In this document: piece after piece, positions 3,199 through 11,646 of the stretch
Position numbering within the stretch: the first letter of the stretch is position 1
Layout of the letters: each line of letters begins with the position of its first letter
Source of the DNA: a virus
DNA: 64,000 nucleotides
Virus genome (UHGV): UHGV-2113617
Reading direction: 5' to 3' (one strand)
The notes under the pieces: generated by a model
Told to the model about the DNA's origin: nothing
What the model saw: the letters and a program-made list of their open reading frames with translations, nothing else
The model's database searches: none
Made by a program: the position numbers and the translations under genes

Positions 3199-4786
<1,588 letters not shown>

Positions 4787-4813
4787 AATAAAATGGGCCT
4801 TGCGGCCCACTCC

Positions 4814-5992
4814 TTAAAAATATTTTTTAAAACTCATCATAACTTTATCATCAACATCATTATCAATCTGTGCTACAAGGTAAGATGACAGTTCTACTTC
4901 TTGCGGCGCGGATTGAACATTATCAGAATTAAGGTATTCACGAATCCAAGGATATGGATGTTTAACCGGAGCATCGGTAATTGGGCATGGAAGACCGCAC
5001 TGTTTCATACGAGATACAGTTAAGTAATCAATAAAGCTCCACATGCTATTTGTATTTAATCCAGGAACATCGCCATCTTTAAATAAATGAACTGCCCAGT
5101 CTTTTTCTTGACGGTTAACTTCCATGAAAATATCAACTGCTTCTTGTTCACACTCTTGGGCAATTTTACCCCATTCATCACCATCAGTACCGGATTGAAG
5201 CTGACGAATAATATATTGGGTGCCTTTAAGGTGGAGCTGCTCATCACGAGCAATGAACTTCATAATCTTGGCATTACCTTCCATGATTTCCATATTCTTG
5301 TGGAAGTTAAAGGTACATGCAAAAGATACATAAAAACGAATAGCTTCTAAGGCATTAATAACGTGCAAACAGAGGTAAAGAGATTTCATTAGCTCACGCT
5401 TCCAATATGTCTCATGCTCAATAGCATCTTCAATAACGTCTTCGTCTGCATTAATTTCTTTTTGGTATTCGATATCAGCTTTAGCGTTTTCCCAATAACG
5501 GGTTTTAGTCAGAACATCATCATAATAGCGTCCAATGGATTCAGCACGTTTCATAATAGCTTCATCTAATACAATTTCATCAAATACCTTCGATGGATCA
5601 GTATAAAGATTTCGCATGATATGTGTATATGAACGGCTGTGAATAGTTTCACTAAAAGTCCACGTAGCAACCCATGTATCAAGGCTTGGGTCTGAAATTA
5701 ATGACATAAGTACAGCAGACGGCGCACGACCCTGAATGCTATCCAAAAGTGATTGATACTTCAGATTATTAGTAAAAATATTTTGCTGATACTGAGGAAG
5801 CTTATTAAACTGTGCAGCATCCATCATTAAGTTTACTTCTTCAGGACGCCAGAAAAATGATAAGGACTTCTCTGTAAGTTCTTCAAATACTCGATGCCGT
5901 TGAATATCATAACGTGCAATACCAAGACCTGAACCAAAAAACATAGGTTCTTTTAAAACATCAACTGGATTTGTATTAAAAACTGTGCTCAT
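4814..5992 (-). CDS. nrdB: ribonucleotide reductase small subunit
   Basis: 392 aa single uninterrupted ORF; strong match to recalled T4 NrdB; no intron here. Confidence 0.95.
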   Translation of the reverse strand: MSTVFNTNPVDVLKEPMFFGSGLGIARYDIQRHRVFEELTEKSLSFFWRPEEVNLMMDAAQFNKLPQYQQNIFTNNLKYQSLLDSIQGRAPSAVLMSLISDPSLDTWVATWTFSETIHSRSYTHIMRNLYTDPSKVFDEIVLDEAIMKRAESIGRYYDDVLTKTRYWENAKADIEYQKEINADEDVIEDAIEHETYWKRELMKSLYLCLHVINALEAIRFYVSFACTFNFHKNMEIMEGNAKIMKFIARDEQLHLKGTQYIIRQLQSGTDGDEWGKIAQECEQEAVDIFMEVNRQEKDWAVHLFKDGDVPGLNTNSMWSFIDYLTVSRMKQCGLPCPITDAPVKHPYPWIREYLNSDNVQSAPQEVELSSYLVAQIDNDVDDKVMMSFKKYF

Positions 5993-6043
5993 AAATTTTC
6001 CGCTTAGTTAATAGTTAGTGACTCGTCCGTGAGTCAAATTATA

Positions 6044-7033
6044 TCATAATTTACAGGATGAACAATCTTCAGCTTTTGGAGTTTCTATTTCATAATCATC
6101 AGTACCAGAACCATCGCGGGTATTATGATAATAGAAATTTTTTCCGCCAAAATACCAAAAATACAAAAGGTCATCAATCATTACAGACATTGGAACCTTT
6201 CCTTTTGGAAAAATCTGCGGGTCATAATATGTATTCGCTGAAGCTGATTGACATACCCATTTAAGCATAATAGCTACCTGCGTAAGATAAGGTTTATTAC
6301 CTTTCTTAGCTAATTTCCATGTATAATCATAGAGGTCTATGTTATGTTCAATATTGGGCACGACTTGATTAAAGGAACCCTCTTTTGATTCTTTAACCGA
6401 GACTGGTCCACGTGGAGGCTCGATACCGTTTGTACTGTTAGAAACTTGGGAAGATGACTCACATGGCATAAGTGCTGATAATGTGCTATTACGGATGCCA
6501 AAGAGCTTAAGGTCTTCCCGCAGCGACGACCAGTCACAAACGTATTTTGGAGCTGCGATTTGGTCAATCTTTTTATTGTACCAGTCGATAGGTAATTCGC
6601 CTCGAGACCAACGAGTGTCTGAATAATATTCGCAAGGTCCTTTTTCTTTGGCGAGTTTAATGGATGCTTTAATGAGTCCATACTGTAATCTCTCAAATAG
6701 TTCATGTGTTAAATCGTTAGCATCTTCATAAGAAGCAAAGTTACTTGCCAGCCAAGCTGCATAGTTAGTAACACCTACGCCAAGGTTTCGACGCTTTTTA
6801 GCTTTTTCTGCTTCAGGAACTGGATATCCTTGGTAATCCAACAGATTATCAAGAGCACGAACTTGAACTTCTGCCAATTCATTAATTTTATCTTGGTCTT
6901 GCCAATCGAAGTTATCCAACACAAATGCGCTAAGGGTACAAAGCCCCACTTCTCCCTTGTTTTCAATAACTTCTATTGTAGTATACTCATCATCTTCGTA
7001 AAATTCATCTACAAATTCATAATCAATATTCAT
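6044..7033 (-). CDS. nrdA: ribonucleotide reductase large subunit, C-terminal fragment
   Basis: 329 aa; from GEVGLCTLSAF onward collinear with class Ia NrdA C-terminus incl. terminal CSSCKL; own ATG with AGGTAGAAG SD. Confidence 0.9.
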   Translation of the reverse strand: MNIDYEFVDEFYEDDEYTTIEVIENKGEVGLCTLSAFVLDNFDWQDQDKINELAEVQVRALDNLLDYQGYPVPEAEKAKKRRNLGVGVTNYAAWLASNFASYEDANDLTHELFERLQYGLIKASIKLAKEKGPCEYYSDTRWSRGELPIDWYNKKIDQIAAPKYVCDWSSLREDLKLFGIRNSTLSALMPCESSSQVSNSTNGIEPPRGPVSVKESKEGSFNQVVPNIEHNIDLYDYTWKLAKKGNKPYLTQVAIMLKWVCQSASANTYYDPQIFPKGKVPMSVMIDDLLYFWYFGGKNFYYHNTRDGSGTDDYEIETPKAEDCSSCKL

Positions 7034-7733
7034 TTAATTCTTCTACCTTTTTTCTAGTAATTCCTAAAGCTTTAGATGCTCGATGTATTGATTGATATTC
7101 TATACCGTTTATTTTTACAGCAATTAAGTTATGGGGTTTTAATCCCTTTGGATGAGGTTTACTGACGAAAACTAAATTATCAAGCTCTGAAATCTTATCC
7201 AATTTCTTACACTTAAATCCTTTGTGATGCGCCCGTTTACCTTTACAAACGGCTGACATCGCAGATGGATTTAAATTATGCTCTTTACAAAATTCGTTAA
7301 GACCTCGATGAATTTCCTCATGACCATCTGGAAATGTAAACACCCAAGACGTTTGAAGTCGAGATTTAACTTCTGGAGACATAGGAATACCTTTGTTCCA
7401 GGCCGGTTTGCCTTTATTATTTTCAGATACAGAAATAGCCAATTTTCTTCTAAGCCATCCATGACGTTTATTAGTGTTCTTTCGTTCAATATTATCTTCA
7501 GAATAAACACACATCATATTAGCGGCAAATATCAATTTATGATTATCTGGATATATCTTTACTAATAATTGATGAGCTATGTAATGCTCTTCTGGTGTCA
7601 AATCTACCAGGTTTTCTTTTGTATCAGAACCACCAATACACAGAGGTATAATATGATGTGATTCGGTATAGCAATCTAATTTTCTGTTCTTAGCTTTAGA
7701 AATAAGGTTATTGTAAATTTTAGAATAATCCAT
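7023..7733 (-). CDS. HNH homing endonuclease (MobE-like) inserted within nrdA
   Basis: 236 aa; HNH motif ESHHIIPLCIGGSDTKENLVDLTPEEHYIAH; stop overlaps the ATG of the downstream nrdA fragment by 10 nt. Confidence 0.85.
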   Translation of the reverse strand: MDYSKIYNNLISKAKNRKLDCYTESHHIIPLCIGGSDTKENLVDLTPEEHYIAHQLLVKIYPDNHKLIFAANMMCVYSEDNIERKNTNKRHGWLRRKLAISVSENNKGKPAWNKGIPMSPEVKSRLQTSWVFTFPDGHEEIHRGLNEFCKEHNLNPSAMSAVCKGKRAHHKGFKCKKLDKISELDNLVFVSKPHPKGLKPHNLIAVKINGIEYQSIHRASKALGITRKKVEELNEY

Positions 7734-7778
7734 AACTTTTCCTCTTGTTATGGATTATTTATTAACGGTCTGTGTACT

Positions 7779-9212
7779 TTATTTGCTTTGAATTATACCG
7801 CCAGGATTAGCTTCATAAAACTTAGCTACATCCGACTTCTTAATTTTAATTAAACGGGTTTGTTGACTATTCACATCATTTGTTGGAATAGCAATTTCAC
7901 AACACAAGTTACTCTGACGAATAGGTGCCTTTTCACGAATAAACGGAGTATAATTATTCGTATTATCAATGAACTGCACATAAATCCTTGCTGTTCCTGA
8001 TCGTTCAGTCATGAGTAATTCAAATAGTTCACGGGCTTTAATACGCTTTTTGCGAATATTAGGGTCTTTTTCTGCTGCTTCGTATAATTCGCGGAAACGG
8101 TCTTGGTCTTTAAAATAAGAATAATAAAGCTCGCCACCCATTTCATGCGGACTAAACAAAGTAATGTAATCGTTCTTTCCGAATCGTTCCATCATTAGGT
8201 CATTCAGCTGAACACCATAATCCATATGACGGATACGGTTTTCTTCTACACCTTTGTTATTTTTCAAAACGAGAAGATTTTCAACTTCCAAATGCCAAAT
8301 AGGATAATAAGCAGTAGCAGCGCCGCCACGAATTCCGCCCTGTGAACATGATTTAACAGCAGTCTGAAAATGTTTCCAAAAAGGAATAACGCCAGTATGA
8401 CGTACTTCACCTGTGCCAATCTTAGAACCTTCGGCACGAATCATACCAACGTTAATACCGATTCCGGCTCGTTTAGAAATATACTCAACAATTGAAGCAG
8501 AAGCTTTATTGATAGACTTCAGCGAATCACCTGCTTCAATAACAACGCATGAACTAAACTGTCGAGTTGGAGTACGACATCCAGCCATAATAGGAGTTGG
8601 CAATGAAATCTGTCGAGTAGATACTGCTTCATAAAAACGAATAACATGTTTTAATCTGTCAACAGGTTCATCTTGATGCAATGCCATTCCAATAGTCATA
8701 AATGCAAACTGTGGAGTTTCATAAATTTGACCAGTGGTTTTATCTTTAACGAGATATTTTTCTTTTAATTGCATCGCCCCGGAATAAGTAAATTCCATAT
8801 CCCGCTCGTGCTTAATTTTTGATTCTAAAAATGTAATTTCTTCTGCAGAATATTTTGACAACAATTCAGGGTCGTATTTACCTTCATTTACACAGTAAGA
8901 AATATGGTCAATAAATGAACGTGGTTCATATTGCCCGTAAACATGCTTACGAAGAGCAAACATTAAACAGCGTGCAGCTACGTATTGATAATCAGGCTCT
9001 TCAACTGAAATAGAATTCGCAGCAGCCTTAATTACAATGGTTTGAATGTCATCAGTGGTCATTCCATCGCGGAGATATGATTTAATATTTTCATATAATT
9101 CATAAGGATCTACAGATGTTCCTTCAGCTGCCCAAGATAAAACTTTAATAATTTTTTGTGGGTCAAAGCTCTGAGAAACACCACTACTTTTGATAACATT
9201 AATTAATTGCAT
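7779..9212 (-). CDS. nrdA: ribonucleotide reductase large subunit, N-terminal fragment
   Basis: 477 aa; collinear with NrdA up to active-site NLCCEIAIPTNDVN, then 29 non-homologous residues before the stop. Confidence 0.9.
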   Translation of the reverse strand: MQLINVIKSSGVSQSFDPQKIIKVLSWAAEGTSVDPYELYENIKSYLRDGMTTDDIQTIVIKAAANSISVEEPDYQYVAARCLMFALRKHVYGQYEPRSFIDHISYCVNEGKYDPELLSKYSAEEITFLESKIKHERDMEFTYSGAMQLKEKYLVKDKTTGQIYETPQFAFMTIGMALHQDEPVDRLKHVIRFYEAVSTRQISLPTPIMAGCRTPTRQFSSCVVIEAGDSLKSINKASASIVEYISKRAGIGINVGMIRAEGSKIGTGEVRHTGVIPFWKHFQTAVKSCSQGGIRGGAATAYYPIWHLEVENLLVLKNNKGVEENRIRHMDYGVQLNDLMMERFGKNDYITLFSPHEMGGELYYSYFKDQDRFRELYEAAEKDPNIRKKRIKARELFELLMTERSGTARIYVQFIDNTNNYTPFIREKAPIRQSNLCCEIAIPTNDVNSQQTRLIKIKKSDVAKFYEANPGGIIQSK

Positions 9213-9529
9213 AAGTCCTCAACTTGAAAATCGTCTTTAAACAATCGGTTAACTATATGAGCTATTATATCACCATGACACGGCTTTGGTTTACATGTGC
9301 ATCCTAGCCTCATTCCACGTAAAGGCTCTAAATGTGCTTTAGTTATTTCTCCGGATTTAATTCGACGTATAAAATCTTTTTTAAATAATTCAATGGCAGC
9401 CTCCCGGCTGCCAGCATCTTTACCGACGTAATTTCCCCAAAATGTACCGCGGTGAATATTAACATCAAAGTCGGATTTGTATTTATTCACTACCCGGCAT
9501 AGACGGCCCACGCTGGAATAATTCGTCAT
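9203..9529 (-). CDS. hypothetical protein (nrdA.1-like)
   Basis: 108 aa ORF between td and nrdA. Confidence 0.45.
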
Positions 9530-9758
9530 ATTGTTTTTCCGTTAAAACAGTAATATCGTAGTAACAATCAGAAGAAGTTTTAACTGTGGAAATTTTATTA
9601 TCAAAATACTCACGAGTCATTTTATGAGTATAATATTTTTTGCCATAAATTATAATAGGCTGATTTGGTCCTGGAACTTCTAACTCGCTTGGGTTAGGAA
9701 GTGTAAAAAGAACTACACCAGAAGTATCTTTAAATCGTAAAATCATATATCCTCGCAA
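9483..9758 (-). CDS. hypothetical protein (nrdA.2-like)
   Basis: 91 aa ORF between td and nrdA; true start may be internal. Confidence 0.4.
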
Positions 9759-9769
9759 TTAAATTAAAA

Positions 9770-10081
9770 TTACACCGCCATTTTTCCTTTCAAGACACCA
9801 TGGGACTGATAATCTTTAAGAACGAAATCTTTAGGCCTGAGTTTAAGAACATATTCCAATTGTTCTTTAGTAGAAAGATAGCGGAATTTATAAGGCAATC
9901 CGCCTATTATCAGTTCACAAAGCTCTTTAGGTTCACGACGCAAAATTTCTTTACATTGTTCTACGTGATTCATATAGATATGAGTATTACCACCAGAAAA
10001 TATCAAATCTCCTGGAATAAGATTACACATCTTAGCTACAATATGAACTAACGCAGCGTACGAGGCAATGTTGAATGGAAG
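9770..10081 (-). CDS. td: thymidylate synthase, exon 2
   Basis: LPFNIASYAALVHIVAKMCNL..GKMAV matches recalled T4 TS C-terminus; the ATG in the track ORF is the last 3 nt of the intron. Confidence 0.9.
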   Translation of the reverse strand, partial: LPFNIASYAALVHIVAKMCNLIPGDLIFSGGNTHIYMNHVEQCKEILRREPKELCELIIGGLPYKFRYLSTKEQLEYVLKLRPKDFVLKDYQSHGVLKGKMAV

Positions 10082-11097
10082 CATTATGTTCAGATAAGGT
10101 CGTTAATCTTATCCCGGAATTATATCCAGCTGCATGTCACCATGCAGAGCAGACTATATCTCCAACTTGTTAAAGCAAGTTGTCTATCGTTTCGAGTCAC
10201 TTGACCCTACTCCCTAAAGGGATAGTCGTTAGGCATTTATGTAGAACCAATTCCACTTATCAGATTTTACACGGTAAGTAACTAATCCGGATGAAATTTC
10301 AAAATGTCTAGCTGCGTCAGCTGCACATTCAAAAATAACCCCATCACATGAAATCTTTTTAATATTACTAGGCTTTTTACCTTTCATCTTTTCTGATATT
10401 TTAGATTTAGTTTTGTCTGAATGCTTATGATTAAAGAATGAATTATTTTCGCCTGAACGATTTCTGCATTTACTACAAGTATAAGCAGAAGTTTGTATAC
10501 GAACCCCACATTCACAAAACTTATGGGTTTCTGGATTCCAACGCCCATTTTTGCTTCCGGGTTTACCGTAAAGAGCTTTCCGACCATCAGAGCCAAGCTT
10601 AAGCATCTTAGCTTTAACAGTTTCAGAGCGTTTCTTAATAATTTCTTCTTTTAATGGATGTACAGAATATGTATCACCAAACGTTGCATCAGCAATATTG
10701 TATCCATTAATTTTAGAATTAAGCTCTTTAATCCAAAAATTTTCTCGTTCAATAATCAAATCTTTCTCATATGGAATTTCTTCCAAAATAGAGCATTCAA
10801 ACACATTACCGTGTTTATTAAAAGACCTTTGAAGTTTTATAGAAGAATGGCATCCTTTTTCTAAGTCTTTAAAATGCCTCTTCCATCTCTTTTCAAAATC
10901 TTTAGCACTTCCTACATATACTTTATTGTTTAAAGTATTTTTAATCTGATAAATTCCACTTTTCATAAATACCTCTTTAAATATAGAAGTATTTATTAAA
11001 GGGTAGTCCTACAATTTAGCACGGGATTGTCTACTAGAGAGGTTCCCCGTTTAGATAGATTACAAGTATAAGTCACCTTATACTCAGGCCTCAATTA
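10082..11097 (-). mobile_element. group I self-splicing intron of td
   Basis: 1016 nt between td exons; 5-prime end TAATTGAGGCCTGAGTATAAGGTGACTTATAC.. matches recalled T4 td intron; begins with in-frame TAA. Confidence 0.9.
10229..10966 (-). CDS. intron-encoded GIY-YIG homing endonuclease I-TevI
   Basis: 245 aa; MKSGIYQIKNTLNNKVYVGSAKDFEKRWKRH.. near-identical to recalled I-TevI. Confidence 0.95.
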   Translation of the reverse strand: MKSGIYQIKNTLNNKVYVGSAKDFEKRWKRHFKDLEKGCHSSIKLQRSFNKHGNVFECSILEEIPYEKDLIIERENFWIKELNSKINGYNIADATFGDTYSVHPLKEEIIKKRSETVKAKMLKLGSDGRKALYGKPGSKNGRWNPETHKFCECGVRIQTSAYTCSKCRNRSGENNSFFNHKHSDKTKSKISEKMKGKKPSNIKKISCDGVIFECAADAARHFEISSGLVTYRVKSDKWNWFYINA

Positions 11098-11646
11098 ACC
11101 CAAGAAAACATCTACAGAACGTTGATACCACTGCAAATCCAAATAGCCATTACGCACATTAAACTGATAGAACATATGACAGGGCGGTAATGCCATTTGA
11201 TTGATTTCAGCTGGATTCCATGCTGAAACGATTTGACGTCGATCAGTTGGTAATTTTTTAATACGATCAATAGTTTCAACTAATTGGTCCACACCGCCGA
11301 AATCACGCCATTGTTTACCGTATATAGGACCAAGTTCACCACTATGATATCCTAAATCTTTTGCTTGGTTTTCGTAATTTTCATCCCAGACTGTTTTGCC
11401 TTGAATTAATGAATCGTGTTGAATTAATCGTAAATCATTGACATTTGTGCTTCCTGATAAAAACCAAAGGAGCTCAGCAATGCAAGCTTTCCAGGCGAGC
11501 TTCTTAGTTGTTACTGCAGGAAAACCTTTACTTAAATCCCAGCGTAATTTAGTACCGAACAAGGCAATTGTTCCTGTGCCTGTTCGATCATCTGTTTCAT
11601 AGCCATTTTCAAAAATGTCTTTAATTAAATCTTGGTATTGTTTCAT
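11098..11646 (-). CDS. td: thymidylate synthase, exon 1
   Basis: MKQYQDLIKDIFENGYETDDRTGTGT.. matches recalled T4 TS N-terminus; ends VDVFLG at the splice site. Confidence 0.9.

Follow-up and report, generated by a model that had tools for sequence, protein, structure and literature searches.

In the Aeromonas phage Aeh1 nrdA, which encodes the large subunit of ribonucleotide reductase (RNR), is organised as nrdA-a/mobE/nrdA-b (Friedrich et al. 2007; Crona et al. 2010). The two NrdA parts are independently translated polypeptides, which assemble without RNA or protein splicing and give an active enzyme (PMC3045599). The tails of these polypeptides are essential, as their deletion cuts the activity about 2000-fold via impaired assembly of the (a/b)2 large subunit, and in 2010 they had no database matches (PMC3045599). 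In phage T4 mobE is intergenic and lies between nrdA and nrdB (PMC2790892, PMC2988022). For both I-TevI and Aeh1 mobE a hairpin is described in the early read-through transcripts, and the late transcripts initiate inside this hairpin (PMC2988022). A 2022 preprint mentions, in one sentence citing unpublished data, "Aeh1 and several others" with a MobE variant inside nrdA and conserved extensions (bioRxiv 10.1101/2022.08.31.505936). In our literature search no paper on a coliphage case was found, and other cases are mentioned only in that sentence; coliphage records are already public, and many of them annotate two nrdA pieces.

Here, an nrdA locus is described from the virus genome UHGV-2113617, of which a stretch of 64,000 nt was analysed (the window; all coordinates are window positions, and all genes and features named by position lie on its minus strand). 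This nrdA very probably carries a MobE-type homing endonuclease cassette of the Aeh1 kind, which divides the gene into two separately translated halves. The mechanism itself was established in Aeh1, and the window therefore adds no new principle; it is a clear further example of a known oddity. What is added are the homologous tails under selection, a recent transfer across nrdA backbones that have diverged, a recoded flank and a covarying hairpin over the mobE start.

Insertion of a mobE-like gene in nrdA

Three open reading frames (ORFs) make up the locus, and their positions on the minus strand agree with those in the original prediction, which was made from the sequence alone. The upstream piece nrdA-a (9212..7779, stop codon 7781..7779) encodes 477 amino acids (aa). 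It is followed by a mobE-like gene for a predicted HNH homing endonuclease (7733..7023, 236 aa) and by nrdA-b (7033..6044, 329 aa). The gap between nrdA-a and mobE (7734..7778) is 45 nt long. This is all of the 5' flank that is truly non-coding, as the approximately 130 nt claimed earlier include the translated tail of nrdA-a. At the other end, the last 11 nt of mobE (7023..7033) overlap the start of nrdA-b; the overlap had been noticed before and was counted as 10 nt. The division of nrdA into two ORFs around a putative HNH-type endonuclease was confirmed with Pfam, where positions 1-221 of the 523 positions of the RNR barrel are found in nrdA-a and positions 219-523 in nrdA-b, with an I-HmuI NUMOD-like ORF in the middle.

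The region is about 98% identical to the Tequatrovirus phage FL33, in which nrdA is split in the same way, and to GEP001, in which nrdA is intact (754 aa). Comparison with GEP001 by BLASTN and MAFFT shows that homology to the intact gene ends at 7865 and restarts at 6952. The DNA in between (7864..6953, 912 nt) is specific for the cassette and replaces 8 nt (CTGATGCC) of an intact T4-type nrdA. This cassette consists of the NrdA-a tail codons with the stop codon, the 45-nt spacer, mobE, and the overlapping start and tail codons of nrdA-b. Across both tail regions the G+C content drops to 28-29%.

The native part of NrdA-a (codons 1-449, 9212..7866) comprises the ATP-cone and all-alpha domains together with the first barrel half. 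The NrdA sequence is followed up to NLCCEIAIPTNDVNS and is native through ...NDVNS at codon 449. From there on the protein continues with a basic C-terminal tail that is encoded by the cassette (codons 450-477, 7865..7782; QQTRLIKIKKSDVAKFYEANPGGIIQSK). This foreign tail had been recognised in the original prediction, although with 29 instead of 28 codons, as the earlier count began one residue sooner. NrdA-b starts with an acidic tail of 27 foreign residues, which is likewise cassette-encoded (codons 1-27, 7033..6953; MNIDYEFVDEFYEDDEYTTIEVIENKG; NrdA-b peptide MNIDYEFVDEFYEDDEY). Homology to NrdA resumes behind it at EVGLCTLSAF (GEVGLCTLSAF in the prediction), and the native part holds Cys32 (the C462 equivalent), the remaining barrel half, the conserved YY pair and the C-terminus CSSCKL.

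When aligned to E. coli R1, residues 5-450 of NrdA-a correspond to R1 6-455 and residues 22-323 of NrdA-b to R1 452-751. The break is thus located in the loop between the equivalents of R1 E441 and C462, and this mapping, which had been proposed as a check, leads to the same loop that is broken in Aeh1. The equivalents of E. coli C225, N437, C439 and E441 are all found in NrdA-a (N435, C437 and E439 in its own numbering for the last three), and the C462 equivalent, the YY pair and the C-terminal cysteines are found in NrdA-b. Due to the position of the cassette in this loop, the active-site residues are divided over two polypeptides.

Directly 3' of the insertion lies a recoded stretch (6952..6926), which encodes E-V-G-L-C-T-L-S-A including the active-site cysteine. 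Ten of its 27 nt are changed relative to intact GEP001, where the background divergence of the two phages is about 2%, and the sole amino acid change is Val for Ile. The recoded stretch probably came with the cassette by co-conversion, and it may remove the target of the putative endonuclease.

Tails, endonuclease and hairpin

The tails of the two NrdA pieces were compared with those of Aeh1. The NrdA-a tail reads TRLIKIKKSDVAKF here and KMLFKVKKSEVDKF in Aeh1, and the NrdA-b tail FYEDDEYTTIEV here and VYEDEEYTTVEI in Aeh1. The net charge is +3 in the 33 residues after the conserved PT of NrdA-a and -10 in the 30 residues before LCTL of NrdA-b, compared to +6 and -10 in Aeh1. Among 11 phages and metagenomic loci with the cassette (carriers), all share the motif L[IV]K[IV][KR]K.[DE][IV]..F in the NrdA-a tail, with net charges from +3 to +7, and YED[DE]EYTT[IL][EQ][IV] in the NrdA-b tail, with net charges from -7 to -14. 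To judge from these shared motifs, the tails are homologous to the Aeh1 tails.

In the tail codons the identity at position 3 is only 44-55%, versus 70-92% at positions 1 and 2, and the median dN/dS is 0.19-0.28. This codon-periodic conservation together with the low dN/dS indicates that the tails evolve as translated protein under selection, unlike an intron RNA. The in-frame stop codon of nrdA-a and the start codon of nrdA-b on either side of mobE are conserved in 11 of 11 carriers. In all carriers for which the ORFs were read both nrdA halves are intact, and between close carriers their dN/dS is 0.0-0.07. A protein-database search with the two tails joined gave two short fragments and no naturally re-fused NrdA, with a word index that is too insensitive for such a query.

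A search of the 236-aa ORF against MobE had been suggested together with the prediction. By BLASTP it matches Aeh1 MobE over its full length with 45% identity (227 aa, 96% of the query, E 5e-57), and Aeh1 mobE is the top match beyond the coliphage group in the phage collection searched. The ORF also matches PHROG 655, 'homing endonuclease' (E 7e-59), and the Pfam family PF22083, a C-terminal I-HmuI/NUMOD-like DNA-binding domain (E 1.7e-9). The N-terminal HNH domain of Pfam scores 18.2 bits, under the gathering score of 21.4 bits. H26/H27, N41 and H50/H54 are invariant in the protein alignment of three sequences. Among close carriers the dN/dS of mobE is 0.16-0.28. By these matches the middle ORF is a predicted MobE-type HNH homing endonuclease and a full-length homologue of Aeh1 MobE.

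At the translation start of mobE an RNA hairpin is predicted (7759..7724), in which AAUAAUCCAUAAC and GUUAUGGAUUAUU form 13 perfect pairs. The Shine-Dalgarno sequence AAGAGGAAAA is placed in the loop and the AUG (7733..7731) in the 3' arm. With an energy of -15.3 kcal/mol the fold has a z-score of -4.1, and among 200 shuffled sequences none was as stable. An equivalent hairpin was found in 10 of 10 carriers examined. In an alignment of six sequences 96% of the cells are paired and three pairs are changed on both sides, compared to 31-46% paired cells in slid controls. This computational evidence suggests that the hairpin occludes the mobE translation start, as it does in Aeh1.

A late-promoter-like motif, AATAAATA (7756..7763), overlaps the 5' arm of the hairpin and matches the T4 late-promoter consensus TATAAATA in 7 of 8 positions. 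In three relatives (L091, L092 and L096) a perfect TATAAATA is present at the equivalent place, and overall the motif reads [T/A/C]ATAAATA. This motif may act as a promoter.

Carriers of the split gene and neighbouring genes

The split arrangement was counted if 80% or more of the 3.5-kb query was covered at a single place. By this definition it is present in 33 of 830 matching phage records with 81-98% identity, and the records that were read come from several laboratories and countries. In the 21 of these records listed with the full span of the query the two nrdA pieces flank the endonuclease gene, except where the annotation omits the pieces. Relatives of MobE with at least 89% identity occur in 35 phage records, and a search of 5.8 billion proteins yielded a graded series of full-length relatives. 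All seven metagenomic relatives with 50-67% identity that were looked up are located inside nrdA with the same layout, and a relative with 40% identity is not.

The IMG/VR database was scanned with the MobE alignment. Among the 80 loci returned, the position inside nrdA was seen in Aeh1 only, and in several loci a MobE-like gene immediately follows nrdA. In the loci L025, L030, L031, L033-L035, L037 and L038, with a MobE-like gene after nrdA, nrdA is itself interrupted by 0.9-1.4 kb at the equivalent of residue 438 (453 in L030). These interruptions may be inteins or introns at the C439 site. Another combination is found in the metagenomic carrier L091 (607-2451), where the 614-aa nrdA-a also contains an intein (PT-HINT, Intein_splicing), and one nrdA thus holds two selfish elements.

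The phages PTE-Eco05, F2 and ZQ3 form a diverged group of carriers. ZQ3 is classified as Mosigvirus, from which the label Mosigvirus-type is used here for the nrdA of all three. Their nrdA flanks are 66-86% identical to the window, whereas the cassette (about 7912..6912) is 95-100% identical, which points to a recent lateral transfer. Differences specific for the backbone are retained up to within 16 nt of the 5' junction, and the end point of the transferred stretch on the 3' side varies by carrier.

Within mobE, the central and C-terminal part (7112..7412) occurs in two alleles with about 70% DNA identity. HY01 and ZQ3 have the other allele, and F2 has it in part. The alleles are independent of the Tequatrovirus-type or Mosigvirus-type backbone, and this suggests recombination within the cassette.

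The annotation of the locus differs between records. In the HY01 record (L007, KF925357.1) the endonuclease is annotated and neither of the nrdA pieces is, and the paper on vB_EcoM-UFV13 puts nrdA among the genes 'not predicted' (PMC5931544). Annotation pipelines mishandle the split gene, as the unannotated pieces of HY01 illustrate.

Downstream of nrdA-b the gene for the small subunit, nrdB, is located (5992..4814, 392 aa), the partner of the split large subunit. In the ORF list and in the annotation of FL33, a near-identical phage, it is uninterrupted. Between nrdA-b and nrdB lies a spacer of 51 nt (5993..6043), which holds no intergenic mobE and no other gene. In close relatives this spacer is occupied: F26 has a 523-aa endonuclease inserted, and 236Ecol005PP has a 792-nt ORF annotated as Dam methylase. 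Judged from the equal insertion size and the extra ORF, FL23 and FL44 have the same spacer endonuclease as F26. The spacer looks like a second hotspot for mobile genes. Directly after nrdB lies a GIY-YIG-like ORF (4376..4810), whose counterpart in GEP001 is annotated as endonuclease II; it is a resident phage nuclease and no mobile insertion. On the other side of the locus a 108-aa ORF (9203..9529) overlaps the start of nrdA-a by 10 nt, and in metagenomic relatives DUF4326 proteins are found at the equivalent position.

Interpretation and comparison with known systems

Based on the biochemistry of Aeh1 and the conservation seen here, the two NrdA halves would be translated separately and would associate non-covalently, without RNA or protein splicing. 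The oppositely charged tails would promote the assembly of an (NrdA-a/NrdA-b)2 large subunit, which would work with NrdB2. In read-through transcripts the hairpin would cover the start codon of mobE. Late transcripts would begin at the late-promoter-like motif within the 5' arm; without this arm, they would permit mobE translation. The cassette would spread by recombination, triggered by the putative endonuclease, into the intact nrdA of co-infecting phages. Recoded nrdA codons next to the insertion would be carried along and protect the carriers from re-cleavage.

Several points weigh against a cassette with two working halves and a regulated endonuclease. The Shine-Dalgarno sequence that had been predicted for the downstream piece is present but weak in this phage (AAGG, 12 nt upstream of nrdA-b), while it is clearer in relatives. 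The late-promoter match in the window is imperfect (AATAAATA). The low dN/dS of nrdA between carriers may partly reflect divergence that is older than separate acquisitions of the cassette. In addition, T4 nrdA is listed as auxiliary and is needed only in nrd-defective hosts, so that a loss of function would be tolerable. For an intron, discussed below, the database scan carries little weight.

The tolerable loss of nrdA leads to the alternative that survives best, a dead gene: the insertion would have inactivated nrdA, the host reductase would be used, and the two ORFs would be decaying remnants. That some annotators left the pieces unannotated, as in the HY01 record, fits with this. However, both ORFs are full length in all carriers read, and seven divergent lineages from metagenomes are among these. 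At the protein level the tails are conserved (dN/dS 0.19-0.28) across cassettes whose MobE is 45-67% identical, and with selection over such deep divergence useless products are hard to explain. All catalytic residues are kept, and the homologous Aeh1 enzyme is active (PMC3045599). We consider a dead gene very unlikely.

Less probable still is a group I intron with an HNH ORF, which would be spliced out to give a continuous nrdA message. Introns do occur in the RNR genes of T-even phages, and in the window the td intron with I-TevI is located 1 kb upstream of the locus. A U precedes the possible 5' splice site (AGU), and an in-frame 3' site ending in G can be drawn. An Rfam scan of 5900..11500 at E <= 10 gave no match to RF00028; the same scan missed the known td intron, so that this negative carries little weight. 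The td gene (11646..9770) consists of the exon ORFs 11646..11095 and 10084..9770 and a group I intron with the I-TevI ORF (10966..10229, 245 aa), and group I introns that contain ORFs can thus escape this tool. However, the non-coding part of the insert is only 45 nt, the flanks of mobE are codon-periodic, and the stop and start codons are conserved in 11 carriers. As 8 nt of nrdA are lost, exact excision of the 912 nt would leave the halves out of frame. Finally, Aeh1 is reported to work without RNA or protein splicing (PMC3045599).

It is more doubtful again that the tails are a degenerate split intein and that protein trans-splicing ligates the NrdA pieces. A split intein was raised as a possible origin by Crona et al. 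(PMC3045599), split inteins typically have oppositely charged halves, and a true intein occurs elsewhere in the nrdA-a of the metagenomic carrier L091. However, with 28 and 27 residues the tails are short, and at the C-terminal junction ...IENKGEVGLC no Asn stands before a Cys, Ser or Thr. In either NrdA piece, Pfam at E <= 0.01 detected no Hint or intein domain, in agreement with the earlier statement that intein motifs are lacking. An assembly or sequencing artefact is hardly conceivable and was ruled out, with the same 3.5-kb arrangement present in 33 phage records and in metagenome assemblies from separate samples.

A cassette with two separately translated NrdA halves thus remains by far the preferred interpretation. 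For a broader view we see an about even chance: the tail pair would be a conserved, portable module for protein reassembly that travels with MobE as a self-contained cassette. It would represent a third way, beside introns and inteins, to place a homing endonuclease inside an essential active site. The family would be old and still moving between T4-like genera, with its carriers protected by the recoding of codons around the active-site cysteine. Homologues of the tails in coliphages and metagenomes show that the tails form part of the mobile cassette and that selection acts on them. As T4-like coliphages can be manipulated much more easily than Aeh1, they would provide a good system to study the target of MobE and the tails.

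The original prediction had noted a resemblance to the genes-in-pieces nrdA of Aeh1, and the relation goes beyond that, as the two loci are homologous. They share the homologous endonuclease with its 45% identity, the broken NrdA loop between the E441 and C462 equivalents, and homologous basic and acidic tails with common motifs. The layout is nearly the same, with a 46-nt gap and a 14-nt overlap in Aeh1 versus 45 nt and 11 nt here, and in both a hairpin lies over the mobE translation start. The two systems differ in their backbone, which is of the Cinqassovirus type in Aeh1 and of a T4-like coliphage (Tequatrovirus type) here. The identity of the tails, with a few native residues included, is 33% for NrdA-a (33 residues) and 45% for NrdA-b (30 residues), and the similarity therefore comes mostly from the core motifs. 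The Aeh1 hairpin has the Shine-Dalgarno sequence in its stem, whereas here it is in the loop and the start codon is in the stem. In addition, the cassette occurs here in two backbones that have diverged from each other, and this is direct evidence that it spread laterally in recent times.

T4 mobE is located in the same operon and has a related N-terminal HNH domain. The HNH domain of the window is 47-56% identical over the first 76-104 residues to endonuclease genes adjoining nrdA in T4-like phages (H78, H79 and H85). These tblastn matches span only the first 32-44% of the 236-aa protein, so that the C-terminal DNA-binding half is not shared. In difference to the cassette, T4 mobE is free-standing in the spacer between nrdA and nrdB and splits no gene, whereas in the window this spacer of 51 nt is empty.

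MobA, which divides the topoisomerase gene of T4 into the genes 39 and 60, is similar in several respects. It is a related HNH endonuclease with out-of-frame C-terminal and N-terminal extensions, the enzyme that it splits is broken at a functional site, and the few deleted host codons are replaced by a homologous stretch encoded by the element (bioRxiv 10.1101/2022.08.31.505936). The recoded flank at 6952..6926, if it is borne by the cassette, would parallel this element-encoded homologous region (bioRxiv 10.1101/2022.08.31.505936). However, MobA has another target gene and carries a 50-nt translational bypass cassette; when the T4 gene 60 bypass sequence was searched for in the window, no match was obtained. 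According to Crona et al. the tail sequences of the MobA type and of Aeh1 have no detectable similarity (PMC3045599).

With I-TevIII in nrdB, I-TevI in td and the RIR1-type inteins in nrdA, the cassette has in common that a selfish endonuclease element occupies a conserved active-site region of a gene for nucleotide metabolism. In all of these elements RNA or protein splicing restores the gene, whereas here the large subunit would be restored by the non-covalent assembly of two polypeptides.

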